DNA from: a virus
Lineage: Duplodnaviria; Heunggongvirae; Uroviricota; Caudoviricetes
Reading direction: 5' to 3' (one strand)
IMG/VR virus record: IMGVR_UViG_2529292723_000018
DNA: 17,955 bases
The notes under the pieces are model-generated. The model had not been told where the DNA came from. It was given only the letters and a program-made list of their open reading frames with translations, and did no database searches. The position numbers and the translations under genes are program-made. Below, piece by piece: positions 1 to 16,359 of this stretch. Every line of letters starts with the position of its first letter. Position 1 is the first letter of the stretch.

Positions 1-288
1 TTACCGCCGCAGCCGTTCCGGCTTCTTCCACTGGTAAGTATTTTTCGCGCTCTCCCTCCGTTGTTGAGAACGGCGACGGTATGCCAGCAACTCAAGGACT
101 CTTGTTCGTATGTTGCGCATATCCACGCCGTTAAGCTCAATACCGTCACGGAGCATCACCTCAGCCACCACACGCGCGTAATTTTCAGCGGTGACTGTAT
201 CCGGCTGCGCGGCCTGTTCGTCAGCCAACTGGCTGATTCCACCAGCACAGCGGATTAATCGCAGTATTTCAGATTCGGTCATTATCAT
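1..288 (-). CDS. hypothetical protein, 3'-truncated by window edge; 4-nt ATGA overlap with upstream terminase-like gene (translational coupling)
   Basis: ATG at 288 (rc of cat 286-288); open to window edge; start overlaps stop of 285..770 gene; basic R/K-rich C-terminal part; no recognised motif. Confidence 0.4.
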   Translation of the reverse strand: MIMTESEILRLIRCAGGISQLADEQAAQPDTVTAENYARVVAEVMLRDGIELNGVDMRNIRTRVLELLAYRRRSQQRRESAKNTYQWKKPERLRR

Positions 289-770
289 GCCTGTTTTGCG
301 ACCTCATTCACTACGTCATTTTTTACCATCCGGCTGATAATCTGATTACGCAAATCGTCAATAATTGACTGCACTCTGTTTACTGCCATCGGTTTAAGCC
401 CGGCATCACGTGCCAGAATATTGGGGAGTTTTGCCAGTTCCTCGCTTACGATTTCCCCCCATATAGCCATCTCTTTTCGCACATCATCGGCGGGTATGAG
501 TTGCGCCGTTTCCTGTTCGAACCTGAGGCGCTCACGTTCGGACTGATACCAGGCCTTACGGTCATGTGGCTCCATTTCTTCCAGTGATGCCGGAACGGGA
601 AGATCAAGAAAACAGGTCAGAATGTCAGTCACCCGATAGAGTTTTAGCTTGTCATGCCCTCCGGCTGGCTGGATGTTTTTCAGCCTTGCCGCCGCAGTCT
701 GACGACATATTCCCGCTATCGCCGCCAGTTGATTAATGTTCAGCATCAGATTTTTCAGTTCTCGATCCAT
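285..770 (-). CDS. lambda Nu1-like terminase small subunit / packaging-specificity protein (winged-HTH N-terminus)
   Basis: ORF-track start at 857 is a TTG; ATG at 770 preceded by GGAG gives MDRELKNLMLNINQLAAIAGICRQTAAARLKNIQPAGG..., which resembles the Nu1 N-terminus as I recall it (KKQLADIFGASIRTIQNWQEQGMPV..GGGKGNEVLY); lies directly downstream of a cos-like site, as Nu1 does in lambda. Confidence 0.55.
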   Translation of the reverse strand: MDRELKNLMLNINQLAAIAGICRQTAAARLKNIQPAGGHDKLKLYRVTDILTCFLDLPVPASLEEMEPHDRKAWYQSERERLRFEQETAQLIPADDVRKEMAIWGEIVSEELAKLPNILARDAGLKPMAVNRVQSIIDDLRNQIISRMVKNDVVNEVAKQA

Positions 771-904
771 ACCCGCTCCAGAATGTTTTAAACATGCATC
801 TTGCGAACAACTTTCAGAAGAGGTCAAAAAATGCGCTATATGTTGAGCATAAAACAAGCAAAATTAACATGCTAAAAATAAAAATACTTAAAATTCAATA
901 CAAT

Positions 905-997
905 GGAAAGATGATGATGACGAATGAAAATGCAAAAACTAGCCTTTTTCCGCGCCGCTCCCGCCCCGTGGCAGGTCACTACACCGGGAGGACCCGC
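905..997 (-). other. lambda-like cos site (cos1): cosN-like GC-rich core plus CATCATCAT cosB-like flank
   Basis: Minus strand reads CACGGGGCGGGAGCGGCGCGGAAAAAGGCTAGTTTTTGCATTTTCATTCGTCATCATCATC, which resembles the lambda left end (ACGGGGCGGCGACCTCGCGGGTTTTCGC...TTCGTCATAA) as recalled; sits between capsid 3' end and the Nu1-like gene. Confidence 0.55.
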
Positions 998-1020
998 AAA
1001 AAAAGGCGGCTATCGCCGCC
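998..1020 (-). terminator. rho-independent terminator downstream of capsid gene
   Basis: GGCGGC-tatc-GCCGCC hairpin (1005-1020) preceded on the + strand by a 7-A run, i.e. hairpin then T-run on the minus strand. Confidence 0.55.
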
Positions 1021-1027
1021 CTTGTTG

Positions 1028-2647
1028 TCATGCTCCACTCGATTTCAGTAATCCGCGATAGTCGAGGGCCGCGACACCTGCATCTATGCGCACCTTCCAG
1101 GCGACGCCATCAACAGTAAATCCCTCCTGCTCCTCAAGATATGGCGTATCAATACCATCAAGATAAGCGACCTCTATCGTGTCCATCCCCTTCGCCGCTG
1201 CCACATACCACTCCTTGTTATTGGCTTTATCAAGACGCGGCTCGACGATAACCTCTGCCATATCTTTCACCACGTTAATGATGCCGGGGTTCTGATTGAT
1301 AGTGCCTCCACCATCAATCGGAAAGAGTGATGACGATGACAGAATGGCGCGATGTGCGGCAGACTCCAGCGCAGCAGGGACCAGAACAAAAGCGGGGGTA
1401 ATATTCAGGGAGTCGCCGTTGCCATCCTCCTGTAATCGCATCAGCTTACGGGCTTCGTTAAGCCCCTCCATGTCCATATCCTTCGCAATAAGATTTTTAT
1501 GATCGGCATGGAATAACGCTTTACCATCCGTAAATTTGCCGTTGCTGGTTAACAGAAGATAAACCAGATTACCTACTGTTCTGGCGGCCGCACGCCCCAT
1601 CGCCATGGGGATTGTAGTTAACTGGGTCAGGTCATCGTTGATAATGGCCTGACGGGTAACAGAAAAAATATTACCGTATGTGGCCAGCGCAATAGGTACA
1701 CCTTTATCGCTGGTGGTGATGTATTTATATTCCGCACCTTCCGGTACTTTATCCAGCTTTGAAAAACCATTCAGACCAACGCGCTTTGCTTCATGAAAGT
1801 TTGAAAGCGATCCGGTACACGTCCATTTCTGGAACGTTTCGCCGCTGTCCTGCCAGCCTTTCAGCACTGATTTTTCAGCACCACCAGCCAGAATATGAGA
1901 AAAATCGCTGCTGCTGTGTGTGAAAGCTGCATTAACGACCTGCGAGCGATTTAAAAAATTGCCAACACTGATACCACGATCAGTTAGTGATGCCTGGGCC
2001 ATTTCAAAAAGGCTCATCATCGCGTAAGGATTTCCCCGCTCTGGGCGTTCATACCCGAGACGAGAATAAAGCCCCTGACGAATTGCATCGCCTGTTATGT
2101 TCCCGTTACCGGCATAAATATGAGTCGGGATATTTTTATTGGATGGCGTGGACTCGCGCCCCAGCTCGTTCAACAACTTTTCACGGGCCATCTCCGGTGT
2201 ACATGATGCATCCTCCAGGCACGCCATTTTGATCCCGTCGTAACGACTGCCGAACAGGCTAAACACTTCACTTATTCCGTTGATGCGCTTCTGTTCATTA
2301 CCAGCAATATTTGCCGCTCCCTGTGGCGGTGTAATCATTCCTTTAATGGTTTCCGGCATATGTAAAAAATCTCCTGTGCGTTTCGATTCAATTCGCGCCA
2401 TTACTCTGACGGATGGCAACAATTCATCAGCAAAACCGTGCTTAAGGCATTCTTTCCCATCCATCCAGGTTTCATCCTCCAGCATGGCGGTAATTTCCTG
2501 TGCTGATTTGCCCGTTTTTCTGGCATAAGCAGGGATTAACACGGTTTCCACCTTATCCAGCAAATCAGCATAATCACGCATATCGCCAGCATTTCCGCCA
2601 GAGATCCCCCACGGTTTATGGATCATCATGCAATACATTGAAATCAT
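1028..2647 (-). CDS. HK97-fold major capsid protein, C-terminal portion of a ClpP-like protease-capsid fusion; 5' part removed by insertion of element E2 (likely pseudogene fragment)
   Basis: About 80% protein identity by eye to residues ~104-638 of the intact fusion at 4671..6587; homology starts exactly at MMIHKPWGISGG; sequence upstream of 2629 is unrelated. Confidence 0.75.
   Translation of the reverse strand: MISMYCMMIHKPWGISGGNAGDMRDYADLLDKVETVLIPAYARKTGKSAQEITAMLEDETWMDGKECLKHGFADELLPSVRVMARIESKRTGDFLHMPETIKGMITPPQGAANIAGNEQKRINGISEVFSLFGSRYDGIKMACLEDASCTPEMAREKLLNELGRESTPSNKNIPTHIYAGNGNITGDAIRQGLYSRLGYERPERGNPYAMMSLFEMAQASLTDRGISVGNFLNRSQVVNAAFTHSSSDFSHILAGGAEKSVLKGWQDSGETFQKWTCTGSLSNFHEAKRVGLNGFSKLDKVPEGAEYKYITTSDKGVPIALATYGNIFSVTRQAIINDDLTQLTTIPMAMGRAAARTVGNLVYLLLTSNGKFTDGKALFHADHKNLIAKDMDMEGLNEARKLMRLQEDGNGDSLNITPAFVLVPAALESAAHRAILSSSSLFPIDGGGTINQNPGIINVVKDMAEVIVEPRLDKANNKEWYVAAAKGMDTIEVAYLDGIDTPYLEEQEGFTVDGVAWKVRIDAGVAALDYRGLLKSSGA
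2618..2629. repeat. left copy of 12-bp direct repeat ATGGATCATCAT (candidate att core, left junction of E2)
   Basis: Identical 12-mer at 12935..12946; both copies lie at the break points of the split protease-capsid gene and are in frame with it. Confidence 0.6.
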
Positions 2648-2696: not shown

Positions 2697-2720
2697 CATT
2701 GCAATACGCATTGCAATACA
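2697..2720. repeat. tandem CATTGCAATAC(G/A) repeats near left end of E2 (candidate integrase arm-type or regulatory sites)
   Basis: Two tandem 12-mers; a near-identical tandem pair at 12781..12806 just upstream of the int start codon. Confidence 0.45.
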
Positions 2721-3069: not shown

Positions 3070-3372
3070 ATGAAATTTGTAAATATACGGTCATCCGAGT
3101 TGCCTGAAATAGATACCTTTGTAAAAGAATGTATCAACCAAGGACAATGGACTCTTTTCAAGGCCGAGAAGGGTGCAGTTAATGATAATAAAGTTGCTTT
3201 TTTTCTAAAGGCTGGCAAAGATTTCTTTGCATTAAATAACAGAGGAAGTGTTATCTCTGTATTTCAATCATTAGATTATAATCTTGAAATGAATGAGGTA
3301 ATTCATTTTTCAGATATTCCTAAACCTGAATCGTTGAGCAATATTGCTAGCTTAGGATTTGCTAGAGTTTAA
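3070..3372 (+). CDS. hypothetical protein (100 aa), first gene of AT-rich cargo operon
   Basis: ATG at 3070; 18-bp gap to next gene on same strand; visibly AT-rich codon usage unlike the core genes; no recognised motif. Confidence 0.55.
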   Translation: MKFVNIRSSELPEIDTFVKECINQGQWTLFKAEKGAVNDNKVAFFLKAGKDFFALNNRGSVISVFQSLDYNLEMNEVIHFSDIPKPESLSNIASLGFARV

Positions 3373-3390
3373 TATATAAGGATATGTACG

Positions 3391-4281: not shown

Positions 4282-4285
4282 TCCT

Positions 4286-4453
4286 TTACTTTTTTGAATA
4301 GATTGCTGCAAGTGCCGTTTTGAGGTCGTAATTTCGGCACTTGCAACTGCAACCAGAAATAGGGCGAACGTTTGACAAACGTTTAGCTATAGTCTGCCGA
4401 TGAAATCCAGTCACTTCCGCCAACTCACTTAAATTTAGAACTATCTTTTTCAT
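4286..4453 (-). pseudogene. remnant of Nu1-like terminase small subunit (55 codons, HTH portion only)
   Basis: Hand translation MKKIVLNLSELAEVTGFHRQTIAKRLSNVRPISG... parallels NINQLAAIAGICRQTAAARLKNIQPAGG of the 285..770 protein, then diverges; ends 4 bp from the stop of the convergent cargo gene; not in ORF track (under 60 aa). Confidence 0.45.
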
Positions 4454-4547
4454 CATAATTACCCTTCAGATGTCGAACAAATAACATACAATCCATCATC
4501 TTTTCCACTTTTATAAAGTTTTACCTAATAAAATTCAGTTAGTTAGC

Positions 4548-4632
4548 GAATGATGATGATGTCTATAAAATTCAAAAACTAGCCGTTTCCCGCGATGCCG
4601 CCGCCCCGTGGCAGGCATCCCCGCCGGGAGTA
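4548..4632 (-). other. lambda-like cos site (cos2) of element E2
   Basis: Minus strand reads CCACGGGGCGGCGGCATCGCGGGAAACGGCTAGTTTTTGAATTTT...CATCATCATCATTCG; same position (capsid 3' end to terminase remnant) as cos1. Confidence 0.55.
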
Positions 4633-4634
4633 CC

Positions 4635-4662
4635 TTTTAAAAAAGGGCAGCATCTGCCGCCC
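4635..4662 (-). terminator. putative rho-independent terminator after capsid gene
   Basis: Short GC hairpin (GGCAG/CTGCC) followed by a T-run on the minus strand. Confidence 0.4.
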
Positions 4663-4670
4663 TCCTGTCG

Positions 4671-6587
4671 TCATGCCGCCCCGCTCGACTTCACCATGCC
4701 CCGATAATCCAGCGCCGCCACGCCAGCATCGATACGCACCTTCCATGCAATACCGTCCACAGTGAAGCCCTCCTGCTGTTCCAGATACGGCACGTCCATT
4801 CCATCCAGATATGCCACCTCGATAGTGTCGGTGCCTTGCGCTGCAGTGACGTACCACTCCTTGTTGTTGGCCTTGTCCAGTCGCGGCTCAACCACTACCT
4901 GCGCCATATCCTTCACGACGTTGATAATGCCTGGGTTCTGGTTCAGCATACCGTTCTGGTCTACCGGGAACAGCGAAGATGATGACAGCACAGCTCGATT
5001 GGCTGCGCCTTCCAGCGCGGCAGGTACAAGGATATAGGCTGGGATAACATTAATAGGATCGCCGTTCGCATCCTCCTGCAGACGCATAGCCTTACGGGCC
5101 TCATTGAGTCCGTCTGTATCCATCCCTTTAGCGATGAGGTTTTTATGGTCGGCGTGGAACAACGCTTTACCATCTGTGAATTTGCTGTTGGCGGTCAGTT
5201 GCAGGTAGACCAGATTGCCAACCGTTCGTGCGGCGGCACGCCCCATTGCCTGTGGAATGGTCGTGAGCTGGCTCAGGTCATCGTTGATAATGGCCTGGCG
5301 TGTAACAGAGAAGATGTTTCCATAGGTGGCCAGCGCGATCGGCACACCGCTGTCGCTGGTAGTGACATATTTGTATTCAGCACCTTCCGGGACTTTATCC
5401 AGTTCTGAAAAACCATTCAGACCGACACGTTTAGCCTCATGGAAATTCGACAGAGAACCGGTCTTTGTCCACTGCTGGAAAGTTTCCCCGCTGTTCTGCC
5501 AGCCAGTCAGCACCGACTTTTCAGCACCACCAGCCAGGATATGAGAGAAATCACTGGTGCTGTGCGTAAATGCCAGGTTCACGATCTGCGAGCGATTCCC
5601 GAAACCACTGACGCTGATACCACGATCCACCAGCGAAGCCTGCGCCATTTCAAACAGACTCATCATGGCGTAAGGGTTTCCCCTTTCGGCGCGTTCGTGA
5701 CCCAGACGGGCAAAAAGCCCCTGGCGGATAGCATCGCCGGTAATGTTGCCGTTACCTGCGTAAATGTGCGCGTTACTGGTTTTATCCGATGGGGTCGAGG
5801 TCTTACCCAGTGCCGTCAGCAGCATGTCTTTTGCTTTTTCAGGCGTGCAATCCACATCCTCCAGACACTGCATCTTGAGAGAATCATGCTTGCCGCCGAA
5901 CATGGCAAACAGATCCTTAATCTCGTTGATGCGGTTCTGTTCCGGTACAGCGCTACTGGTGGAACCTTTCGGGCTGGTGATCATCCCTTTAATTTCTTTT
6001 GGCATATGCTCAAAATCCTCAATTCGTTTTGACTCAATACAGGCCATTGCCCTGACGGCGGGTAACAATTCGTCAGCAAAACCCTGCGCTACACATTCGC
6101 GGCCATCCATCCATGTTTCATCCTCCAGCATTTCCGCCAGTGATTCGGCTGATTTACCCGTTTTGCGTGCATATGCCGGGATCAAGACACTTTCGACTTT
6201 ATCCAGAAGTTCGGCGTAGTCGCGCATGTCGTTGGCGTTCCCACCAGAGATTCCCCACGGTTTGTGAATCATCATGAGTGCGTTTTCGGGCATAACGATA
6301 CGGTCGCCAGCCATTGCAATAACTGACGCCATAGACGCGGCGAGACCGTCGATCTGCACTGTAATTTTTGCCGGGTGTTTATTCAGAAGGTTATAGATAG
6401 CGATGCCGTCAAAAACATCGCCACCGGGTGAATGAATGTGCAGGCTGATATGGGAGATATCGCCTAGGGCTTTCAGGTCTTCGGAGAACTGCTGCGCCGT
6501 AATACCCCAGCCGCCGATCTCTTCGTAGATGCTGATATTGGCGCTGGTGCCATCGCTGGCCGCTTTGATGGTGTACCAGCCTTTCAT
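4671..6587 (-). CDS. ClpP-like prohead protease fused to HK97-fold major capsid protein (638 aa), intact
   Basis: ATG at 6587 with AAGGGGA Shine-Dalgarno; N-terminal ClpP-like motifs (GLAASMAS, MMIHKPWG); long C-terminal capsid-like region; ATGA overlap with upstream small gene. Confidence 0.85.
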   Translation of the reverse strand: MKGWYTIKAASDGTSANISIYEEIGGWGITAQQFSEDLKALGDISHISLHIHSPGGDVFDGIAIYNLLNKHPAKITVQIDGLAASMASVIAMAGDRIVMPENALMMIHKPWGISGGNANDMRDYAELLDKVESVLIPAYARKTGKSAESLAEMLEDETWMDGRECVAQGFADELLPAVRAMACIESKRIEDFEHMPKEIKGMITSPKGSTSSAVPEQNRINEIKDLFAMFGGKHDSLKMQCLEDVDCTPEKAKDMLLTALGKTSTPSDKTSNAHIYAGNGNITGDAIRQGLFARLGHERAERGNPYAMMSLFEMAQASLVDRGISVSGFGNRSQIVNLAFTHSTSDFSHILAGGAEKSVLTGWQNSGETFQQWTKTGSLSNFHEAKRVGLNGFSELDKVPEGAEYKYVTTSDSGVPIALATYGNIFSVTRQAIINDDLSQLTTIPQAMGRAAARTVGNLVYLQLTANSKFTDGKALFHADHKNLIAKGMDTDGLNEARKAMRLQEDANGDPINVIPAYILVPAALEGAANRAVLSSSSLFPVDQNGMLNQNPGIINVVKDMAQVVVEPRLDKANNKEWYVTAAQGTDTIEVAYLDGMDVPYLEQQEGFTVDGIAWKVRIDAGVAALDYRGMVKSSGAA

Positions 6588-6796
6588 TTTTCCCCTTCCG
6601 TTACAGCGAAGCCATTTTCATCAAGCCATGCGTTGACTGCGTGCCGGACTACCTGTGCCACTCCGGGCAATGGCTGGACAGGAAGATTTTTCAGATGATC
6701 GTTGCGGTATTGCTTAAGGCGTACAACGGTTTGCGCGTCCAGATGTACGGAGCCGCCTTTAGTCTCGCCAGTGTTTAAATCGTTAATGTCACTCAT
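6584..6796 (-). CDS. small conserved protein (70 aa) upstream of and translationally coupled to protease-capsid gene
   Basis: ATG at 6796 with AGAGGA Shine-Dalgarno (ORF-track start at 6844 is TTG); homolog at 13258..13464 (MSDINDLNTGE... vs MSCINDLNTGD...). Confidence 0.55.
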   Translation of the reverse strand: MSDINDLNTGETKGGSVHLDAQTVVRLKQYRNDHLKNLPVQPLPGVAQVVRHAVNAWLDENGFAVTEGEK

Positions 6797-6941
6797 GATG
6801 TCCTCTACTGTATAAGTAAACAGGTTATGATGATTGATCACCAAAAGTGGTAAGTGAACAATTTTTTATCTGAAAAATAGATTTATGATGAAAAAAAATT
6901 TTTGTATGGTCTTAGATTGGAATAAACAGAAAGGTTAAAAA

Positions 6942-7655
6942 ATGGATCTCACTCGTAATGACGAACTCCTTTTGAATGATGCAGCTAGACGCTCATTTCG
7001 GGATATGGCAGACCAGGATTATCTCTCAGCTCGTCTGTGTTATAAGCACAAATTGAATTTTCAATTTTTATGGCTTTCGCAACAAGCCGTAGAGAAATAT
7101 ATTAAAGCGATTTTACTTTATAATAGAGTTCCAGTATTAAAATTAAATCACAATTTAAACAAAGGGCTGGCAAAGATTAAAGAAATCCCATATCTTGAAT
7201 TAGACCTAGATGTAAAAAGTGAGCGATTCATAGATTATCTCAATGAGCAGGGCCCAAATAGATACTTCCAAAACACTATGTATACCGAAGGCTTTGAAAT
7301 TATAACCTTGGATAGAACCATCTGGGAATTAAGAAGATACTGCAAGCCACTAAACTACTCAATTACTAACCCAAAAGGTGAAGTGATAGAAATGTTAGAA
7401 CATGAATTGAGTAGCATAAAAAATTCGAAGTCGAGGCCTTATCATACGTTCAAACTATTTGGAGGTTACTTAGAAAAAAGATTAAAAGATAATAAATTCA
7501 ATCAGGGCGACATACTTACATGGAAAAATTTATTTTTTGGAAGAAATAAAAAAAATGCAATTAGAATTGGAAGATCAATGCATGTAACTCATCCAACTCA
7601 TTATATGTACCCAAATGCAACGGAAATGCTCAGTCGTTTCTTTAAAATAAAATAA
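6942..7655 (+). CDS. HEPN-like protein (tentative), candidate abortive-infection effector; AT-rich cargo
   Basis: N-terminal helix pair with QQAVEKYIKAILL resembling the HEPN QAxEKxLKA signature; R-x5-H (RIGRSMH) near C-terminus; opposite strand to flanking core genes. Confidence 0.5.
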   Translation: MDLTRNDELLLNDAARRSFRDMADQDYLSARLCYKHKLNFQFLWLSQQAVEKYIKAILLYNRVPVLKLNHNLNKGLAKIKEIPYLELDLDVKSERFIDYLNEQGPNRYFQNTMYTEGFEIITLDRTIWELRRYCKPLNYSITNPKGEVIEMLEHELSSIKNSKSRPYHTFKLFGGYLEKRLKDNKFNQGDILTWKNLFFGRNKKNAIRIGRSMHVTHPTHYMYPNATEMLSRFFKIK

Positions 7656-7744
7656 TTACATTCCAATTTTATTTACCGCTGTTAAATAAGTAAGGTATAT
7701 CTTTATTTATCGACATTGATAATCATGAAAGAGTATATCTTTTT

Positions 7745-7960
7745 TGCCGCACCTAGCGCATTTCTCACCGCACTTTCATCCCGCGCACTTAGGTGCGCAA
7801 TCCAACATGCACCGTACAGCCATTAAAACCAGTAATGGGGCGGGTTTGCAGGTGATTAATGCCAAACCGCGCACTTTCTTCGTATATACATGGAAAAAGT
7901 GCGGCAAGTGTATGTTTTATGAGCATTTCGCGCATCACGCGCATTTCTTGCCGCACTTTT
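7745..7960. repeat. iteron-like repeat cluster (TTGCCGCAC / CGCACTTT / GCGCATTTC, direct and inverted); candidate origin for the E2 replication protein
   Basis: TTGCCGCAC at 7745 and 7949, its complement at 7900; CGCACTTT four times; GCGCATTTC at least twice; lies immediately 3' of the replication gene, as the TGTTCACC iterons do in E1. Confidence 0.45.
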
Positions 7961-7964
7961 CAGG

Positions 7965-9374
7965 TTAAATTATCGTGATATCTCCTGAATCATCGATAAA
8001 GATAATATTCTCCCTAACGAGTTTATCAAGCCAGCGTTTAAAACCTTTGCGGCCGTTCTCTCCAAACAGAGTGGTAATATCATCACGTATAACAGAGACA
8101 TTACACGGTTCACCTTTGGCTTTTCGGCTCCGGATTGACTGCCAGAGTGCAGCGTGGTTCCCAGTCAGGTGCTTGATATCAGCAAGTTCCGGATCAGGTT
8201 CTCGTGCCTCTCGTGGCAGGTCCTGCACCACCAGCGACGAAATAAGCTCACCATCACGATCTGTGAACAATTCGATCGGACGCAGATCGAATGCGGCCTG
8301 TTTCGGCTCCTCCGCATCTTTCATCTTCGTACAGGTCAGGATTATCGCCCCACCATCCCCCTCGCGCCGGACATTGAACTCTGCATCGAGCGCAGCCCTG
8401 AAAGCACTGGAACCACGTGCGCCTTTGGTATCGTCTTTTCCTGAATGATGCACCACCAGCAACGTGGCGCCAGTCTCACGCTTGATGACGTCGCAGCCTT
8501 CAATAAACGCCCCCATGTCACGAGCATCGTTTTCATCGTTACCACCAAAGCACCGCGCTAGAGTATCTATGACAATCAGGCGAACCGGCTGCCCCGTTTT
8601 GGACTTAACGTCACGCGCAGCTTTGATCATCTCCTGCATTTCCTCACGGCGAACCGGGAAAACCGGACGGTTTACCAGATACAGATTATTTAGTTTCACA
8701 CCATGTTTTTTCTCCCACGCCTTTATTCGCCGCGGAACGCCAATACCACCTTCACCTACTACGTACATCACAGCGCCGGCTGATACCGACTTCCCCGCCC
8801 ACTTCATCCCGGCTGCAACGTGACAAGCCCAGGACACCGCCAGAAAACTTTTATACGAACCGCTCGGGCCGTAGATACTGCTCAGGCTGTTAGCGGGAAG
8901 ATAACTTTTTAACGTGTAATCCTGCTCCTGATCGTACCCATCAGAGCCCACGCTTAAAGGAAGGCTGTGCCGCAGTGACTCCTCTCGCACAGAGACTTCA
9001 ACCTGTTCACGCAGACGAGAAAGATATTCCCTCCAGTCCTCAGGCTCATGGTCGGGGATTCCTTTATACAATTTGGCATCCTGCACGCCAGCCAGCGCCA
9101 GCTTTTCAGCAATGTTATTAATCTGGATAGGCTTTATATTCCCTGCCAGGTAAATCCGCACGGCACGACGGCCATCATCCACAATGCGCAGGTTATCCAG
9201 CTCTGCCAGTTGTTTTGGCCCAAGGTAAACAGGAGGAGTGGTATCTTCGGCAATCTGTTTACCAAGCCCCTCTTCCCAACCCTTCGCATGGGCGTATGCT
9301 TCTGACCCGGCAAAAATAACTGCCTCCGTGAATTTTTCTTTTGGCAGGTGTTTCAGATTCGGTGCGTTTTTCAT
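7965..9374 (-). CDS. replication protein: N-terminal domain shared with the P4-family primase at 14246..16063 plus AAA_25/RecA-like ATPase (pri-rep type)
   Basis: ATG at 9374 with AAGGGG Shine-Dalgarno; deviant Walker A (YGPSGSYKSF); LLVVHHSGKD...RGSSA motif typical of RepA-like ATPases; first ~110 aa align with the E1 primase (KxAPNLKH...). Confidence 0.75.
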   Translation of the reverse strand: MKNAPNLKHLPKEKFTEAVIFAGSEAYAHAKGWEEGLGKQIAEDTTPPVYLGPKQLAELDNLRIVDDGRRAVRIYLAGNIKPIQINNIAEKLALAGVQDAKLYKGIPDHEPEDWREYLSRLREQVEVSVREESLRHSLPLSVGSDGYDQEQDYTLKSYLPANSLSSIYGPSGSYKSFLAVSWACHVAAGMKWAGKSVSAGAVMYVVGEGGIGVPRRIKAWEKKHGVKLNNLYLVNRPVFPVRREEMQEMIKAARDVKSKTGQPVRLIVIDTLARCFGGNDENDARDMGAFIEGCDVIKRETGATLLVVHHSGKDDTKGARGSSAFRAALDAEFNVRREGDGGAIILTCTKMKDAEEPKQAAFDLRPIELFTDRDGELISSLVVQDLPREAREPDPELADIKHLTGNHAALWQSIRSRKAKGEPCNVSVIRDDITTLFGENGRKGFKRWLDKLVRENIIFIDDSGDITII

Positions 9375-9694
9375 TTCAGCCCCTTATCCCATCCGTCAGA
9401 TCCAACACTCAGCGGCAGAGAAGAGCGCAGAGCAGCGATTTTTTTACGCACGTTTTCTTTTCCGGTCTCCTGCCACTCCCTGCTTTCCTCAGGGAGATAA
9501 ATAAATTCTTTTCGGAACCGGTACTCAGAAAAAATACACTCATGTGAATACCCATCCCGGACATACGTAATACGGCTATCCGTTATGCATGTGACAGTAA
9601 TTTTTTCTCCGCGAGAATCTTTCCAGCGACTGTTAAGCTCGATTTTTGGTTGAGCGATGCCCTCAAGCTGAACCTGATTGAATTTTTTAATCAT
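9371..9694 (-). CDS. small protein (107 aa), homolog of 16060..16359; C-terminal tail resembles the primase linker
   Basis: ATGA overlap with primase start; YVRDGYSHECIF vs YFIRDGYSFHSS in the E1 homolog; C-terminal LRSSLPLSVGSDGWD matches primase LRHSLPLSVGSDGYD. Confidence 0.55.
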   Translation of the reverse strand: MIKKFNQVQLEGIAQPKIELNSRWKDSRGEKITVTCITDSRITYVRDGYSHECIFSEYRFRKEFIYLPEESREWQETGKENVRKKIAALRSSLPLSVGSDGWDKGLK

Positions 9695-9698
9695 GAAT

Positions 9699-9878
9699 TT
9701 ATTCCTTGTCGGTAGCCGTTAAACCGTATGCTTCAGCAGCCTGACGAACTGCCTGGATAAAACCTTCCGGTGTGGCCACGATTTCGTCCGGACGAAGGCG
9801 GCGCTCTGTAACCTGACCGTTTTTAACCGTCACCAGTACGCGGATCTCGTAATCAGCAGGTAAGGCGGAGTTATCCAT
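9699..9878 (-). CDS. small hypothetical protein (59 aa from internal ATG)
   Basis: ORF-track frame 9699..10004; upstream part overlaps the better-supported gene 9871..10158, so start placed at ATG 9878. Confidence 0.3.
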
Positions 9879-10158
9879 GGCGCCCCTCCATTGGCACAGC
9901 TTCATTGCTGTAAGGATCGCTACCCAAGATGCTCCATAGGGTGCGATGTTCAGGATCCATAAACGACACTGAGAGCGGGCTTTCTGTTCGGATTTTGGCG
10001 GCAAAGGTCAAGTCCCAGCCGCAGAACTTTGCACGGGCAGTATCTTCAGTGTCTGCAATGGTGCGCAGAACTATCGGGAGACAAGAGTGACCTCGCGGCG
10101 TGCCAAGGAATAGCCATGTAAATTTTGGGCGAGTTTGGGTATGCTGTTGATCAGCCAT
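9871..10158 (-). CDS. small protein (95 aa), first gene of leftward operon; homolog of 16679..16883
   Basis: ATG at 10158 with GAGGT Shine-Dalgarno; shared KFTW motif and downstream pattern with the E1 homolog. Confidence 0.5.
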
Positions 10159-10190
10159 AACTGTTACCTCAACTAACGGTTTGTGGTTAG

Positions 10191-10239
10191 ACGTCCCGTG
10201 AGTGGTTCCAAGCACTTCCGGGACGTTGCTTTTTTCACG
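10191..10239. promoter_or_regulatory. conserved stem-loop (ACGTCCCG / CGGGACGT, 20-nt loop) followed by T-run, at the 5' end of the leftward operon
   Basis: Same structure at 16919..16965 in E1 with a compensatory pair (T-A replaced by C-G). Confidence 0.45.
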
Positions 10240-10248
10240 TCAAGCGTG

Positions 10249-10298
10249 ATAACGTACGTACGTAATAGCAACATCCTATGAGGTTACGTACGTACATG
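10249..10298. promoter_or_regulatory. two palindromic operator-like sites (ACGTACGTACGT core) between divergent RHH gene and leftward operon
   Basis: TAACGTACGTACGTAATA and TTACGTACGTACATG about 34 bp apart; second overlaps the start region of the RHH gene. Confidence 0.5.
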
Positions 10299-10487
10299 TC
10301 AACAATAAAACGAGATAAAACACCCAAAGGAGAGGGCTTGTCTCCGACATTCCAAATCCGAATAAGTCCTGAATTGCGCCAGCAGATGAATGAAGCTGCT
10401 GAGCGTGAGGGAGTAAGTCTTGGTAATTGGCTTAAAGGTCTGGCTAGAAATGAACTTATTAAGCAAGGAATTGAACCTAAAGGTTAG
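10278..10487 (+). CDS. ribbon-helix-helix (Arc/CopG-like) transcriptional regulator, candidate E2 repressor
   Basis: RISPELRQQMNEAAEREGVSLGNWLKGLARNEL fits a beta-strand plus two helices; true start may be ATG 10296 (MSTIKRDK); adjacent to palindromic operators. Confidence 0.6.
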   Translation: MRLRTYMSTIKRDKTPKGEGLSPTFQIRISPELRQQMNEAAEREGVSLGNWLKGLARNELIKQGIEPKG

Positions 10488-10540
10488 TTTTCACAAGCAC
10501 TCTTTGATTTTTTCAGTAAAAATTAAATTAAGGAAATTCT

Positions 10541-11251
10541 ATGGATGATTTATATACACCATCTGAATATTTTATGTTCGTAGAGAAATTTGATCATTAC
10601 TTCCCACGAAAAAGCCCTTTTAACTCATTATTATTCGAGTTCAATTATAGATTAGAAGATATAGTTGTTTTTCATCGCTTTGTTATCAACACCTATTCAA
10701 AAAATAAAAAAGCAATTGATGTACAATATAATAAATTTAATTTTCTTGATGATAAACAAAAAAATTCCCTTTCTGATGACGAGTATGAAGCGTATCAACT
10801 CAGGTTTGCAAGGCATATGGAATACATTAACCATCAAACTGATTTGAATGAAAAAGCGTCTTACATTGCTAACGATAGTGTCGTTATAAACTTATGGGCC
10901 ATGAATGAACAATATATGACTAGAGGATTGGCCAACCTAATATCTCAAAAAGAAAATAAAAATTTAAATGAAGTTAAAACGCCTTACAAATGGGATACAA
11001 TCAAAAGTAAATTCCTGTCATATGGAATCAACTTTGAGACATTGCCATCTTATGATGACATTAATGAATGTAGAGTACTGAATAATAAAATAAAACATCT
11101 GAACATAGTAGATTCTGGTTTAGAAGTTTTCCCTCCCTTCAAAGGTAAGCTTAACGAATCACTTACTGGCATGGCCTTTCCTCTTCAAAAATATATCATA
11201 GGCTCTCATCACTTTATAGGAATGCTATTAGAAGAGTGCTCATTAAAATAA
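10541..11251 (+). CDS. hypothetical protein (236 aa), AT-rich cargo in the RHH-alpA slot
   Basis: AAGGA Shine-Dalgarno; AT-rich, Asn/Lys/Ile-rich; the same slot in E1 holds only a 62-aa ORF; no recognised motif. Confidence 0.55.
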   Translation: MDDLYTPSEYFMFVEKFDHYFPRKSPFNSLLFEFNYRLEDIVVFHRFVINTYSKNKKAIDVQYNKFNFLDDKQKNSLSDDEYEAYQLRFARHMEYINHQTDLNEKASYIANDSVVINLWAMNEQYMTRGLANLISQKENKNLNEVKTPYKWDTIKSKFLSYGINFETLPSYDDINECRVLNNKIKHLNIVDSGLEVFPPFKGKLNESLTGMAFPLQKYIIGSHHFIGMLLEECSLK

Positions 11252-11255
11252 ACGC

Positions 11256-11292
11256 ATGGCAACGTATAATTTATCGCTTAATACGTTGCCAT
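11256..11292. terminator. 12-bp perfect inverted repeat (ATGGCAACGTAT / ATACGTTGCCAT, 13-nt loop) between convergent genes
   Basis: Lies between the stop of 10541..11251 (+) and the stop of alpA (-); no strong T-run, so terminator function is uncertain. Confidence 0.4.
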
Positions 11293-11297
11293 ATCTC

Positions 11298-11543
11298 TCA
11301 TTTATTTTTATCGAACCAATCTCCTTTAATCCAAGCTTGCATCTCTGAGAGCCGGTAAGCAACTGCTGACGGCCCAATTTTGATTCGCTTAGGAAATTTT
11401 CCTTCCTGTTCCATGCGCCAGCGCGTTGAGTTAGACAACGTAGTCATAGCCCGGCATTCAGGTTCGCGAATCATTCTGTCAAGGTCAGGCATGTACTGGA
11501 GATCTTCTTTTTTCACAACGGATAACATAGCCATATCAGGCAC
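11298..11543 (-). CDS. alpA: AlpA-family excisionase / transcriptional regulator
   Basis: MIREPECRAMTTLSNSTRWRMEQEGKFPKRIKIGPSAVAYRLSEMQAWI matches the AlpA pattern as recalled; start may be the internal ATG at 11492; 8-bp overlap with int. Confidence 0.8.
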   Translation of the reverse strand: MPDMAMLSVVKKEDLQYMPDLDRMIREPECRAMTTLSNSTRWRMEQEGKFPKRIKIGPSAVAYRLSEMQAWIKGDWFDKNK

Positions 11544-12771
11544 TCCTTTTCTTAATTACTTTTACTGTATTTTCTTCACCCACCAGCCCATCAAGGTAGT
11601 CAACCCATCGGTCCAGTGCTTCTTGCTTTTGAGGGATATACTTGCTGCGGTTATAGACTCCGGCCACGCCCTTTATGGTATGCCCCAGCAGCTGCTCTAC
11701 GACCATAAAATCAACGCCCATATCGTTAAGGCTTGTCGAGAACGTTCGTCTCAAATCATGTAATGACCAGCGTTTTTCATGTTTCAGAGAGATAAAGTTT
11801 GTGCATCCCATCGTACTGACGGTTGAATCAGATTTCAGTTCGCCAAATATGTAGCCTCTCCTTTTAGTCTCTTCGTGCAGGTTTACGATCCACTGGCGCA
11901 TTTTTTGAGGAACGGGGCGAATAATTTCTTCGCCGTTTTTACTGTGCTCTTTAGGTACTGTCCAAATCCACTTATCGAAATCCCACTCATCCCATGTAGA
12001 TAAACGCGCCTCACTCAGCCTGCAGCCAAACACGAGACACAAAATCGCCATCCTTTTTTTGTAATTCATTACACGGGTTTTGCCTTTACCATGAAAGTAC
12101 ACTCCCCACAGATCGGCGACGTAGCTTTCCTCAAGTAGCCGCTCTCTCTTGTTCTGATACTTACCGATATCACCAGGGCTCAAATCATCAAGCACATTGC
12201 ACCGCACATACTGGCGCACCCGGCAGTATTTGAAGATCTGCTTTAACTCAATCAGCATTGCAGCAGACTGAACCGGCGCGATTTTCTTTATGCGGTCGAA
12301 GCACTTGATCCAGTCTGACAGACCGCATTTCTCGACAGGAAACCCGCCGATGTAGGGAAAAATGTATCTCTCATAACGGCGATAGAGCCGTAAAGTCTCT
12401 TTGCGCTTTTCCCTGGCATAGTTATCAAACCAGTAATCGATAGCGTTCTTCACAGTTACTGGAGTGAACAGGTTCTCTTTGGTGAGTTTGTTCTCTATTC
12501 GTGGGTCGAGTCCCTGAGATAGCCATGCCCGGCACTCGTCCCTTTTCTCTCTGGCCTGTTTAAGGGTCATATCTGGATACTTGCCTAACGTCATCCAGAC
12601 GGGGGCGCTTTGTCGGCCGGAATGTCTGAAGAAATACACAAAGCTCACAGTGCCACTAACGCTCACTCTGACAGACAGTCCACGACCATCTGCCACCATC
12701 TTTTGACGCGGCTGGGGTTTACCATGTAAGGCCTTTAACGCCTTGTCGCTTAACTTGTTCTCGCCCGCCAT
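11536..12771 (-). CDS. int: P4-type tyrosine integrase
   Basis: N-terminal arm-binding pattern (GRGLSVRVSVSGTVSFVYFF...LGKYPDMTLKQAREKR); C-terminal catalytic-region motifs LHDLRRTF and LLGHT...VYNRSKY; adjacent to right junction of E2. Confidence 0.9.
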   Translation of the reverse strand: MAGENKLSDKALKALHGKPQPRQKMVADGRGLSVRVSVSGTVSFVYFFRHSGRQSAPVWMTLGKYPDMTLKQAREKRDECRAWLSQGLDPRIENKLTKENLFTPVTVKNAIDYWFDNYAREKRKETLRLYRRYERYIFPYIGGFPVEKCGLSDWIKCFDRIKKIAPVQSAAMLIELKQIFKYCRVRQYVRCNVLDDLSPGDIGKYQNKRERLLEESYVADLWGVYFHGKGKTRVMNYKKRMAILCLVFGCRLSEARLSTWDEWDFDKWIWTVPKEHSKNGEEIIRPVPQKMRQWIVNLHEETKRRGYIFGELKSDSTVSTMGCTNFISLKHEKRWSLHDLRRTFSTSLNDMGVDFMVVEQLLGHTIKGVAGVYNRSKYIPQKQEALDRWVDYLDGLVGEENTVKVIKKRSA

Positions 12772-13258
12772 AAAACCTCATTCTGCAATACACATTGCAA
12801 TACACACTTAACTGCAACGCCGAAAAACAGTAGAAAAGCAATGCAAACAACACCTCTTCTTTCTTCATAATTAACAATAAGTTAATGAATGAATACGGTT
12901 CTTCATGCGTACCCATGAGGTAGTGTGAAGGATAATGGATCATCATCATGGCGTTCTCCGGCATCACTACACGATCGCCAGCCATTGCGACCACCGAAGC
13001 CATTGAAGCCGCAACACCATCGATATAAACCGTAATGTCTGCCGGATGATTCCGTAGCAGGTTATAGATGGCGATGCCTTCAAACACATCACCACCTGGT
13101 GAATGGATCCTCAGATTGATATGTGAAACATCGCCAAGGGCTTTCAGGTCTTCCGCGAACTGCTTTGCAGTAACACCGAAGCCGCCAATCTCCTCATAGA
13201 TAGATATATCCGCCGCTCCACGAACATCCGCCGCCTTAATGGTGTACCAGCGATTCAT
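12719..13258 (-). CDS. N-terminal fragment of ClpP-like prohead protease (first 108 codons authentic; remainder is read-through into E2 DNA); disrupted gene
   Basis: MNRWYTIKAA...GVAASMASVVAMAGDRVVMPENAMMMIH is about 75% identical by eye to the N-terminus of the intact fusion, then diverges at the 12-bp repeat. Confidence 0.7.
   Translation of the reverse strand: MNRWYTIKAADVRGAADISIYEEIGGFGVTAKQFAEDLKALGDVSHINLRIHSPGGDVFEGIAIYNLLRNHPADITVYIDGVAASMASVVAMAGDRVVMPENAMMMIHYPSHYLMGTHEEPYSFINLLLIMKKEEVLFALLFYCFSALQLSVYCNVYCRMRFYGGREQVKRQGVKGLTW
12781..12806. repeat. tandem TGCAATACA repeats 10 bp upstream of int start
   Basis: CTGCAATACACATTGCAATACACAC; matches the tandem pair at 2697..2720. Confidence 0.45.
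12935..12946. repeat. right copy of 12-bp direct repeat ATGGATCATCAT (candidate att core, right junction of E2)
   Basis: Identical to 2618..2629; protease homology begins exactly here on the minus strand. Confidence 0.6.
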
Positions 13259-13464
13259 TATTCCCCCACCGATGCAAAACCATTCTGATTAAGCCAGGTG
13301 TTTACGGCATGTCTGACAATCTGCGCCACACCTGGTAATGGTTTGTCAGGATGATGATTTATATGGTCGATCCTGTACTGCTTAAGGCGCATAACGGTCT
13401 GCGCATCCAGATGAACGGAACCACCCCTGATATCGCCCGTGTTCAGGTCATTAATACAACTCAC
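13258..13464 (-). CDS. small conserved protein (68 aa), homolog of 6584..6796; GTG start
   Basis: GTG at 13464 with AGAGGA Shine-Dalgarno; stop overlaps protease ATG by 1 nt. Confidence 0.5.
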   Translation of the reverse strand: MSCINDLNTGDIRGGSVHLDAQTVMRLKQYRIDHINHHPDKPLPGVAQIVRHAVNTWLNQNGFASVGE

Positions 13465-13564
13465 AGTAACTTCCTCTTACTGACTAAACTGTGCACATTA
13501 TTGATCGATAAAAGTGGTAAATAAATATATTTCTATCATAAAAATAGATTAATCAGATTCAGAC

Positions 13565-13590
13565 ACAAAAAAGCCGGAGAAAATCCGGCA
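13565..13590 (-). terminator. rho-independent terminator
   Basis: GCCGGA-gaaaa-TCCGGC hairpin preceded on the + strand by AAAAAA, i.e. followed by T-run on the minus strand. Confidence 0.55.
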
Positions 13591-13776
13591 TAAATACCCC
13601 GCCATCTGAACACGTTTTGACACTGGCAACTCCACCTGGCAGGTGAAAAACAGATTTATTTATATATTTCAATTAATTGCAAGCTGGTCTAATGACAGGG
13701 AGAAAAAAATATTGTACAGGTGAAAACAGAAATAATTTTTAATTATCAATAAATTATCAAACATGCTGCCGCCGCC

Positions 13777-13848
13777 ATGAAAATGCAAAAACCAGCCTTT
13801 TTCCGCGACGCTCCCGCCCCGTGGCAGGTCACTACACCGGGAGGACCC
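13777..13848 (-). other. cos-like segment (cos3), about 72 bp near-identical to cos1 but lacking the CATCATCAT cosB-like flank
   Basis: Two mismatches to cos1 across the cosN-like core; flanking sequence differs immediately beyond GCATTTTCAT. Confidence 0.5.
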
Positions 13849-13850
13849 AT

Positions 13851-13878
13851 AAAAAAGCCGGATTGCTCCGGCTTCTGT
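13851..13878 (-). terminator. rho-independent terminator
   Basis: GCCGGA-ttgc-TCCGGC hairpin with a 6-A run on its + strand 5' side. Confidence 0.5.
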
Positions 13879-14002
13879 TACTCGTTGCTTAAAACGGTAT
13901 GTTATCCCCGTACGGATCATCATTCCCCGCCTGTTGTTTTGGTGTGCTTCGCTGTCATAGGCTTTATCTCACAGCAGTAAATTAAAATTTTTGCGTTTTA
14001 AC

Positions 14003-14231
14003 CCTTCACCTGTTCACCTTTTGATATTTTCTCTTTTAATTCATAATGTTAAGGGGTGAACAGTTTCACAAAAACTATTCACCAACTGTTCACCACTGTT
14101 CACCCTTGAAGCTCAATAAACAATCAAAAAGGTGAACAGTGAATAGTTTGGTGAACAGTTCATAAATAACTGTTCACCCTATAATATACTGATATAAAAG
14201 ATATTTATGACAGGGTGAACAGTGGTGAACA
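14003..14231. repeat. P4-type iteron cluster: at least 10 copies of TGTTCACC / GGTGAACA in both orientations (candidate ori/crr)
   Basis: Exact octamers at 14011, 14055, 14087, 14097, 14131, 14150, 14171, 14214, 14224 plus variants; TGTTCACC is the octamer bound by P4 alpha protein at ori and crr. Confidence 0.75.
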
Positions 14232-14245
14232 GTTATTCCATAAGT

Positions 14246-16063
14246 TTAATTTTTGCTATCGTCATTAGTGACCGATACACATGATGGCATCCAGTCTTCT
14301 GATTCCTCCGTCAGTGTCACGTTTGAACGCAAACCGTGCTTCGTTTTCCGTTTCATATACTCCCTGCCATATTCCGCCATTGCCCCCGGCATATCTTTAC
14401 CGAAGCGCGTCAGTGTTACAGGTTTACCAAACCCATGTGCCCTCATATAAGCCAGATAGGCATGATAGAGATACCTGCGTGGGCTGAATGGCACAATTTC
14501 AGCATTACCCACTAACAGGCCATCACACATTACCGACGCCATGAGATAGCCGCAGAAGTCCACCAGCGAATCCCCCTCTCGCTTTATCGCCAGTGCTTCT
14601 TCAGATTTCTGCTGCTCATATAACAGGCGTCTGGCTTCGTCCTGGTCAGCAAACCGTGTAAGCAGATGGCGAATCACTACCGCCAGCTCACCTTCTATTT
14701 TTTCCGCCAGCATTGGATCACGTTCGTTCTCCGGTACAACTTCCGAAAAATTGAATATCACCCGACGACGTGAGATCCCCCCGCTGCGGTCACTGAATGA
14801 CATGGCGTTATTGTTAACCGCCAGCACTACTGCCGGAATACGCGTTGAGTAGGGGGCTTTGTGTTTCGGGTCAATTGCCACCTTGTCACCGCCTGTAATA
14901 GCCTTAATCCCTGCCCCATCACCAGCGTAGCGGGTCATATCCGGCATGATAATCAGCGAAAAGCCAACCACTAACGCGCGTTCCCTTGCATCTTCCAGCG
15001 CCTTCATGCTTGCCGATACTGTGTTGGCCTTACCCGCCAGCATGGTGCAAATCTCCGCCATCACGCTTTTACCACTTCCCCCTGGACCTGTTACCTCAAT
15101 GAATAACTGCCAGTCGTACCGGTTCGCCAGCACCATGAATAATGCAGCCAGTACGCGATCCGCCTTGCGGTCATTCTCAGCCACCGAACGGCGTAACCAC
15201 TTCCAGAAATTCGGCGCATGTGTTGCCAGCGTTTCCCCCTCTGCTGGTGGGCTGAAAGGTAATTCACTGGCAATTAACAACCAGTCGTTTTTGTTATGCT
15301 CCCGAAAATTACCTGTTCTGGTATCAAATACCCCGTTACTGAATCCAATCAGGTTACGGGCTGTATTCCCCATTACAGGCAAACTTAACTTCATGGTATC
15401 GACCGCCGATTTAATGGCGTTCTGCGAATAGCTGATCTCCGCATCAATGAAAATCTGTGCCATAGCTCGCTGTAATTCTTTATCCTGTACTGGCTCCCAT
15501 ACAACGCCGTTGTAATGGTGAACAGTGTCAGAGTCAGCATGAATCGCCAGTTCACCGCCATAATGTGCCAGGAGAACTTCGCCGCGTTGACTTGCTCCCA
15601 TCTGGTTAAGCGCCAGTGATGAAGCGTTATCGTCTTTTACCCGCTCTTTTTTCTTTACAGGCAGTTCAACTACCTTTTTCTTTTCCGCCTGCTCTGCCCG
15701 TTCACGTTCCAGATATTCGCGCCAGTTCTCCCGTTTCTGGCTGTGCATTCCTTCAGGATAATAATCAGCATCCCTGACACCTGCCGCTGCCAGTTTCTGC
15801 CCGATGGTATTAACAAGTCCCGGACGCAATAACCCCGCCTGATAGAGACGCACGCGATAGCGTCCGTCTGGTACGATTTGCAGGTTGTCCAGTTCGGCAA
15901 GTTGTTGCTCTCCAAGCCAGACAGGTGGCACGTTATCGCCAGCCAGTCGCCCGTCCTGTTCCTGCCACTGCTTCGCATGTGCCCACGCATCACTACCCGC
16001 AAAAATGATGACTTCCGTCATTTTGTCACGCGGTTGGTGTTTTAAATTTGGCGCTTTTTTCAT
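14246..16063 (-). CDS. P4-family primase / SF3 (D5-like) helicase
   Basis: Start placed at ATG 16063 (MKKAPNLKH, GGAGAG Shine-Dalgarno; the ORF-track start at 16078 is GTG); Walker A GPGGSGKS; cognate TGTTCACC iterons immediately downstream. Confidence 0.8.
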   Translation of the reverse strand: MKKAPNLKHQPRDKMTEVIIFAGSDAWAHAKQWQEQDGRLAGDNVPPVWLGEQQLAELDNLQIVPDGRYRVRLYQAGLLRPGLVNTIGQKLAAAGVRDADYYPEGMHSQKRENWREYLERERAEQAEKKKVVELPVKKKERVKDDNASSLALNQMGASQRGEVLLAHYGGELAIHADSDTVHHYNGVVWEPVQDKELQRAMAQIFIDAEISYSQNAIKSAVDTMKLSLPVMGNTARNLIGFSNGVFDTRTGNFREHNKNDWLLIASELPFSPPAEGETLATHAPNFWKWLRRSVAENDRKADRVLAALFMVLANRYDWQLFIEVTGPGGSGKSVMAEICTMLAGKANTVSASMKALEDARERALVVGFSLIIMPDMTRYAGDGAGIKAITGGDKVAIDPKHKAPYSTRIPAVVLAVNNNAMSFSDRSGGISRRRVIFNFSEVVPENERDPMLAEKIEGELAVVIRHLLTRFADQDEARRLLYEQQKSEEALAIKREGDSLVDFCGYLMASVMCDGLLVGNAEIVPFSPRRYLYHAYLAYMRAHGFGKPVTLTRFGKDMPGAMAEYGREYMKRKTKHGLRSNVTLTEESEDWMPSCVSVTNDDSKN

Positions 16064-16359
16064 TTCTGCTCTCTCCACGCGGCAATCATGTTTTTCAGTT
16101 CCTGTAGTTTTTTATCCACATCCACACGTGACACATGGTTATTTCTGGAAGGCGGGATTTCCCGCCGGAATCTGCAAATAAAGATCTCCACGTTCAGCGA
16201 GCTATGAAATGAATAGCCATCACGAATAAAGTACACACGGTCAAACATTATCGATTTTACTGTTACTCTGTTGCCGTTCTTATCCCGATAAATAGCGCCG
16301 GGGATAATTTTGGGATGTGCATAACCGCTGGCAGTCAAGCCAGATAAATACGTTCTCAT
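16060..16359 (-). CDS. small protein (99 aa), homolog of 9371..9694
   Basis: ATGA overlap with primase start; shared RDGYS motif. Confidence 0.5.
   Translation of the reverse strand: MRTYLSGLTASGYAHPKIIPGAIYRDKNGNRVTVKSIMFDRVYFIRDGYSFHSSLNVEIFICRFRREIPPSRNNHVSRVDVDKKLQELKNMIAAWREQK

Follow-up and report, generated by a model that had tools for sequence, protein, structure and literature searches.

An upstream lambda-type cos site predicted in an Escherichia coli phage satellite is a candidate second packaging site for another helper class

Why should a phage satellite with a cos site beside its own small terminase (TerS) homologue carry another copy of the cos core upstream of its capsid module? 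The locus that raises this question lies in a window of 17,955 nucleotides, the whole stretch of DNA analysed here, which comes from E. coli O114:H49 strain 90-9280 (NZ_CP024240; position 1 of the window is position 6744 of locus L002) and in which almost all genes are on the - strand. The window holds a PICI-type satellite, E1, of about 10 kb without a second island, E2, that is nested in it. E1 sits at tRNA-Ile and has the gene content of a Gram-negative cos-type PICI (integrase, HTH regulator, primase replicase with iterons, size and att). Its order is integrase, HTH protein, Icd-like protein, DUF4222 protein, D5-type primase, iterons, the site in question (cos3), a 68-aa gene, a ClpP-protease/major-capsid fusion, cos1, a DUF1441 TerS homologue and a phrog_1561 gene. 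The fusion gene is interrupted by E2 (about 2640-12930) after residue ~108 (MMIH|KPWG). The product of its N-terminal part (12930..13258, - strand; Pfam CLP_protease) is 100% identical to residues 1-108 of the protein of the related island L005, and that of its C-terminal part (1028..2647, - strand; Pfam Phage_capsid_4, phrog_133) is 95.7% identical to the L005 protein.

E2 comprises its own integrase, a RepA-type helicase, a small gene, an intact 638-aa capsid fusion that is 79% identical to that of E1, a cos site (cos2) and a truncated terS. Inserted near residue 110 and bringing an intact copy of the gene with it, E2 has the features of an HE-PICI of the C:CLP_protease:110 type. cos2 (4564..4643, - strand) has its nick at 4606, the end GGGCGGCGGCAT and a variant cosQ, GGTACT, and is followed by the truncated terS of 56 aa (4286-4456). 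Within 3070-4456, two + strand accessory genes stand downstream of the E2 terS, one of 100 aa (phrog_30138, function unknown) and one of 296 aa that has no counterpart in PHROG; both may have a role as cargo or in defence. An annotated HEPN-domain gene (6942-7655, + strand) lies between the RepA helicase and the small gene of E2, which is the position of cos3 in E1.

The first-pass annotation had described 13777-13848 as a near copy of the cos1 segment at 924-995, and over these 72 bp the two differ at exactly two positions; a 72-nt repeat match arose in none of 200 dinucleotide-preserving shuffles. The repeat search widened the family to 80 nt and three members, namely 924-1003, 13777-13856 (95%) and 4564-4643 (74%), so that cos1, cos3 and cos2 are all represented, in one shared orientation. 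Alignment also bore out that cos1 and cos3 part exactly where cos1 continues into its CATCATCAT flank: read on the - strand, cos1 runs ...CATTTTCAT|TCGTCATCATCATC and cos3 ...CATTTTCAT|GGCGGCGGCAGCATG. The reported location was correct as well. On the - strand, cos3 lies downstream of the D5-type primase gene (14246-16078) and of the GGTGAACAG iterons, and upstream of both the 68-aa gene (13258-13464) and the gene for the ClpP-capsid fusion. The iterons are dense, in direct and inverted orientation, and occupy 14000-14250 (array 14032-14247) by the primase gene; the array is presumably the replication origin of the island. The 68-aa gene (13258..13464, - strand; phrog_4934) leads the late operon of the island and is not homologous to the 70-aa gene of the phages. 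A small gene and leader region 88-90% identical to it heads three large hypothetical proteins, with no capsid gene, in another island, L216 (NZ_CP122454, 1-7565), where the operon stands behind a PerC regulator; heading a non-capsid operon there, the gene therefore looks like a general PICI late-operon leader gene. That island (H176/L216) was also considered as a natural close relative without cos3 and set aside as uninformative, since the leader gene is all that it has in common with E1 and the operon is a different one.

Comparison with phages placed the 72 bp within a real cos site, as their cos-like nature had suggested. To judge from the alignments, cos3 has all three parts of a lambda-type cos, namely cosQ, cosN and cosB, and is complete except for its terS. 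The cosQ-like heptamer GGGTCCT (13842..13848, - strand) stands 29 nt before the nick and agrees with lambda cosQ in heptamer and spacing; no variation in it was seen across 114 cos regions of cdtI-class phages or across the island copies. The cosN segment (13803..13822, - strand) reads ACG|GGGCGGGAGCGT|CGCGG and would give a 12-nt cohesive end from 13819 to 13808, a length derived from the frame ACG|12 nt|CGCGG, which is also that of lambda cosQ-cosN. For both phage cdtI and phage Tritos, position 1 of the deposited genome is the base equivalent to window position 13819, which is therefore a genuine phage-end position; the cdtI record ends ...CTGCCACG and starts GGGCGGGAGCGT, giving the circular junction ...CTGCCACG|GGGCGGGAGCGT. 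The last 31 nt of the repeat (13777..13807, - strand) form a conserved post-cosN segment in the alignments, shared with cos1: it has no variable column among five islands and is common to cos1, cos3 and both phage classes described below. Beyond it, cos3 has an AT-rich cosB (13636..13776, - strand) that aligns with the cdtI/Tritos/HannyBb class and is not found in cos1; identity to phages and prophages of that class is 92-96%, with homology reaching about 13616. Repeat analysis detected two direct TTTTCACCTG elements in this cosB (13726-13717 and 13649-13640, - strand), at +94 and +171 from the nick, as candidate TerS-binding sites. On the + strand these elements read CAGGTGAAAA and look like the GGTGAACAG iteron core, a likeness that is probably coincidental because the phages have the same cosB.

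The label "partial" attached to the site thus proved mistaken, in that homology to phage cos runs for about 160 bases past 13777, through a full cosB to the start of terS. The repeated segment is confined to 72 bp because it is the cosQ-cosN core common to two different cos classes. Alignment with cdtI and HannyBb identified a remnant ORF (13549..13635, - strand) whose first seven codons (GTG GAG TTG CCA GTG TCA AAA) align as homologues of the beginning of cdtI-class terS; the phages have ATGGAGTTGCTTATGTCAAAT (MELLMSN) where the island has GTGGAGTTGCCAGTGTCAAAA. After the seventh codon the island DNA is unrelated to phage and ends in a terminator at 13589-13573, so that this remnant is all of terS that lies directly downstream of cos3, whereas cos1 does have a terS. 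Immediately upstream of cos3, DNA folding predicted a terminator hairpin, AAGCCGGAGCAATCCGGCTT (13855..13874, - strand; T-run 13849-13854), which closes the primase/SSB operon, and a homologous junction of terminator, TTTTTTAT and GGGTCCT was found in the islands L005, L006, L094, L095 and CFT073. The hairpin overlaps a 3' remnant of the SSB gene (...NDDPYGDNIPF*; 13849..13941, - strand), recognised by alignment from matches under the annotated SSB gene; the whole gene is present at this position in L005, L006 and L178 and has been lost from E1 and from pZ1323HEC0475-3. Searches of the cos3 region gave no Rfam RNA family and no unusual fold apart from the terminator (z = -1.3).

The other end of the module belongs to a different packaging class. 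The core of cos1 (924..1003, - strand) has its cosQ at 995-989 and the 12-nt end GGGCGGGAGCGG at 966-955; its cosB, the CATCATCAT flank (771..954, - strand), aligns with the phi458/mEp460 class, and the adjacent gene (285..770, - strand) encodes the TerS homologue, which is full-length and is assigned to DUF1441 by Pfam and PHROG. The DNA of cos1 and terS together is 77-81% identical to the corresponding segment of phi458-class phages. The island TerS is 67% identical to that of phi458, and its likeness to cdtI TerS is confined to the C-terminal part (46%). The cosQ-cosN core is all that cos1 and cos3 have in common. A comparable relation was observed between the phages themselves: cdtI (L001) and phi458 (L007) have capsid fusions that are 99.8% identical, portals that are 99% identical and the same cohesive end, whereas TerS identity is only 42%, the DNA-binding parts at the N-terminus being different, TerL is 46% identical over its first 50 residues against about 100% in the C-terminal half, and cosB differs. 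This looks like a natural swap of packaging specificity inside one lineage. On sequence grounds, E1 has one cos for each class, and its own TerS fits cos1 only. Roughly one-eighth of complete E. coli genomes have a cdtI-class cos, as estimated from evenly spaced rows of the search result. Neither TerL nor a portal was found in E1, L005, L006 or L217; E1 must therefore borrow TerL, the portal and the rest.

The explanation that we favour, and to which we give an even chance, is that cos3 would act as a working second packaging site for the terminase of cdtI-class helpers. The lineage of these helpers is lambdoid, with a ClpP-capsid fusion and two packaging classes that share capsid and portal and differ in TerS, in the first ~50 residues of TerL and in cosB. 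In such a scheme, cos1 and the adjacent phi458-class island TerS would form a private packaging unit, and cos3, without an island TerS, would be recognised by the unmodified TerS-TerL of a cdtI-class helper. The helper terminase would nick at 13819/13808, and packaging would proceed from cos3 towards lower window coordinates (leftwards), across the capsid module and on round the concatemer, until termination at the next suitably spaced cos. With two sites, the island could be packaged whichever helper class is induced. We favour this explanation because all recognisable elements are intact in every copy, because cos3 should be a near-perfect substrate for the cdtI-class terminase, because the module keeps cos3 across repeated changes of backbone, because a helper of the cdtI class physically hosts the module in one genome (L178), and because EcCICFT073, a known satellite, has two functional cos sites.

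The distribution of the module carries several of these points. At least 80% of the block from cos1 to cos3 is present in 184 of 5,426 complete E. coli genomes, and the junction of cos3 with the small gene in 163 of the 5,426. The cos3-capsid-cos1 module occurs on at least three unrelated backbones, the 2.6-kb block being 94-98% identical among islands with only 22-23% integrase identity and with different replicases (a RepA-type helicase, or a D5 primase of 48% identity). The claim that a directly oriented pair of cos sites brackets the capsid module once E2 is discounted held in the E2-free relatives L005, L006, L178 and L217, where the spacing is 2.5-3.3 kb; L005 and L006, which are intact and occupy another attachment site, have both sites in direct orientation 2.53 kb apart. 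In every cos3 copy examined, cosQ, the 12-nt cosN spacing and both TTTTCACCTG elements are intact. L178 holds the module in an island (1560-11896) that is inserted in terL of a cdtI-class prophage, so its cos3 matches the class of the surrounding helper, a circumstantial pointer to transfer by such a phage. L217 (NZ_CP148328.1, 1-10790), or pZ1323HEC0475-3, is an E1-type island in the form of a free 10.79-kb circle, in which the 12-nt end is identical at both cos sites; a tail-gene fragment (8473-9173) lies there between the capsid gene and cos1. Two further islands, L091 (nicks at 6511+, 9048+ and 9933-) and L093 (6907+, 9444+ and 10329-), have three cos sites with three cosB classes (cdtI-like, lambda-like and CATCAT-like), the third inverted; in both, cos3 remains with the capsid gene and the downstream cos is of another class.

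Several other lines of search were followed. The genome of the source strain has a cdtI-class cos at one place and no second, that is, no resident helper of the cdtI class, which speaks against a working cos3. As a proxy for co-residence of cos3 islands with cdtI-class prophages, a second match was present in 47 of the 60 best island-bearing genomes, a count that does not distinguish the class of the match, in which many strains are clonal, and on which we place no weight. Virion-derived contigs were sought for DNA ends, and every hit was a predicted provirus in the genome of an isolate, the window itself among them; ON470578 (16 kb), considered as a packaged satellite, was ruled out as a partial phage genome. 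We also considered whether the difference in the final base of the 12-nt end (cos3 T, cos1 G) might be maintained as a bar to sub-genomic circles, and rejected the idea because cos3 of L091 ends in G, that of L093 in AT, and the two sites of pZ1323HEC0475-3 are identical.

Related islands were compared. Essentially every E. coli island that has this capsid variant retains cos3, and more distant islands lack it; the first-pass annotation had proposed to judge the site by such comparison, and presence or absence among relatives neither proves nor refutes function. The distant islands are those of Trabulsiella, Yersinia, Buttiauxella, Phytobacter, Kluyvera and Moellerella, whose island-type capsids are 71-79% identical: they have one cos, directly after the capsid gene as in E2, and no upstream copy was found in these capsid-bearing relatives. 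That such single-cos islands manage in six other genera counts against a working cos3. Their layout also indicates that the downstream position is ancestral for this capsid module and that cos3 is therefore an addition. The capsid protein of the island is only 55-57% identical to the phage capsids, and this distance, together with the relatives of six genera without cos3, argues that cos3 is not a by-product of capsid gene acquisition. At 93-96% identity to phage DNA, cos3 is thus much younger than the capsid module, or more constrained, or refreshed by exchange with phages. Of the earlier suggestion that the site is a scar of capsid capture, the recombination and subsequent deletion stood, as the seven-codon terS remnant attests, and the link to the original acquisition of the capsid gene did not. 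The stump of cdtI-class terS shows the joining of a cos-terS unit and its later truncation; cos3 derives from a cdtI-class unit of this kind, which entered by recombination and lost terS from codon 8 on. The bracketed layout may have arisen by a crossover between islands with an upstream and a downstream cos, or alternatively by gene conversion in a helper-embedded island like L178, with the surrounding helper as donor.

The same history could have left a site with no present packaging role, which is the main alternative, possible if somewhat doubtful. On this account cos3 is a neutral recombination remnant that hitchhikes with the 2.6-kb capsid module: a cdtI-class cos-terS unit was joined to the module and terS was then deleted, the crossover having taken place between two islands or between island and phage, in the ~80-bp cos core or in homologous capsid genes. 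Seven terS codons followed by unrelated sequence are what a deletion scar would look like, and cos3 is not conserved above its surroundings. Among five islands the mean pairwise difference was 0.044 in the cosB of cos3 and 0.03-0.07 in the flanks, and changes specific to islands fell on phage-invariant columns at a rate similar to that on phage-variable ones (9 of 163 and 6 of 60), so the conservation of this cosB could reflect recency and linkage. Cos-like cores also stand at the same SSB-terminator position in E. coli islands of other types (L094, L095 and L113), and those of L094 and L095 have 10-11 nt rather than 12 in the overhang frame, so upstream copies can decay. The cos lies only upstream of the capsid gene in L094 and L113, where it is the sole one detected, only downstream in E2 and the other genera, and at both places in E1; given this variety, one crossover in the capsid gene would produce the bracketed layout, and nested or tandem PICIs that would permit such crossovers are documented (PMC10111431). 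L094 (NZ_CP031910, 3662-13851) is, like L178, a helper-embedded PICI (HE-PICI) inside the large-terminase gene of a lambdoid prophage. Against a mere remnant, the geometry is correct and all recognisable elements are present in every cos3 copy examined, the deletion ends just past cosB, and the module has kept cos3 while spreading to more than 160 genomes on at least three unrelated backbones. A cdtI-class terminase would, moreover, hardly pass over a site that matches a working phage cos at 93-96% identity. Another proposal is that cos3 is mainly directed against the helper, its cosB at high copy on the replicating island titrating TerS or terminase or provoking unproductive cuts and so lowering phage yield. 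A cosB near-identical to that of the helper and without a partner gene would suit such a role, as would the fact that the island makes its own TerS for cos1, and packaging interference is a hallmark of PICIs that in EcCICFT073 acts at the TerS-cosB step (PMC6739421). Because a terminase that binds a complete cos is expected to package the DNA carrying it, here that of the island, this role is hard to separate from packaging itself, and as the main function of cos3 we consider it improbable.

Two further proposals concern the module as a whole. The pair of sites might delimit a capsid cassette, a unit of exchange among satellites that moves between backbones when terminase cuts at both sites or when breaks stimulate recombination. 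Such a cassette would account for a module 94-98% identical on backbones with such divergent integrases, for borders at cos cores and terminators, and for the identical 12-nt ends of pZ1323HEC0475-3; cos was reportedly found to stimulate recombination in lambda by Stahl and co-workers in the 1980s. Yet the conserved block runs past cos3 into the 3' end of the SSB gene and past cos1 into terS, so its borders are not exactly the cos sites; in L091 and L093 the downstream cos has been replaced while cos3 stays; and a cos-to-cos piece of 2.5 kb is far too short for terminal cutting, which in lambda depends on a headful. We regard the cassette as very improbable. It is less of a stretch, though still unlikely, that satellites collect cos sites of different TerS specificity as keys to helper classes, with the ~80-bp core as the recombination joint. 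E1 with two classes and L091 and L093 with three could illustrate such a set, and its corollary, that cos/terS units and capsid cassettes are swapped between satellites and helpers, we hold to be equally speculative.

Should the favoured explanation, that of a working second packaging site, be correct, the helper range of E1 would be widened to both packaging classes of a prophage lineage that is very common. The helper range of a satellite decides how far its cargo reaches, and that cargo can include defence, virulence and resistance genes. In known E. coli PICIs the helper is recognised through one specific cosB plus Rpp; the layout of E1 suggests another solution, a private cos/TerS pair together with a copy of the helper's cos. 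For annotation, sites in these islands can be located by the rule cosQ GGGTCCT, 22 nt, 12-nt end, CGCGG, and the class of a cos is worth recording beyond its mere presence. Practical uses lie in the prediction of satellite mobility and in PICI- or cosmid-based DNA delivery.

The nesting of E2 in E1 corresponds to a published composite, the "HE-PICI in a PICI", of which 24 HE-PICIs at C:CLP_protease:110 in a PICI at tRNA-Ile2 make a 20.6-kb example (PMC10111431); that report touches on cos only briefly and describes neither a pair of cos sites nor their classes. The closest functional precedent is EcCICFT073, in which two lambda-type cos sites are both experimentally functional (PMC6092414, PMC6739421) and in which deletion of the second cos raised transfer, so a second cos can be costly. 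The backbones of EcCICFT073 and E1 are alike in order (int, HTH/alpA, Icd-like, DUF4222, primase, SSB, and late genes including a capsid homologue), and in both satellites cosQ and cosN are conserved and cosB differs between the sites. The sites of EcCICFT073 both follow the capsid genes downstream, in inverted orientation and about 0.75 kb apart with a single small gene between them, whereas those of E1 are direct, 2.5 kb apart and bracket a different capsid module, the ClpP-capsid fusion. Moreover, neither site of EcCICFT073 has the cosB of the helper, its specificity being conferred by Rpp bound to the phage TerS (PMC6739421), whereas E1 has one site near-identical to the helper cosB and another paired with an island TerS homologue.

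Cos-type SaPIs (SaPIbov5, SaPIbov4) likewise combine the helper's own cos with a capsid homologue, Ccm, as E1 combines a helper phage cos with a capsid-protein homologue, and two putative cos sites are reported for SaPIbov4 (PMC6092414, PMC8569155, PMC5052747). These islands differ from E1 in being Gram-positive, unrelated in sequence and HNH-dependent, and they are not described as having a separate TerS/cos pair of their own. The cf-PICIs resemble E1 in encoding a capsid protein of their own and differ in having a full head and packaging set, where E1 has only the protease-capsid fusion and TerS; without TerL and portal, E1 is not a cf-PICI. For lambda and phage 21, Feiss and co-workers reportedly described shared head genes alongside a cosB that co-varies with the DNA-binding domain of TerS and the N-terminus of TerL. 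The pair cdtI and phi458 repeats this pattern, the difference in specificity being predicted from sequence, and E1 departs from it by gathering both specificities, in the form of cos sites, in a single satellite. EcCICFT073 already provides a satellite with two cos sites, and the layout by helper class described here is a variant of that arrangement.
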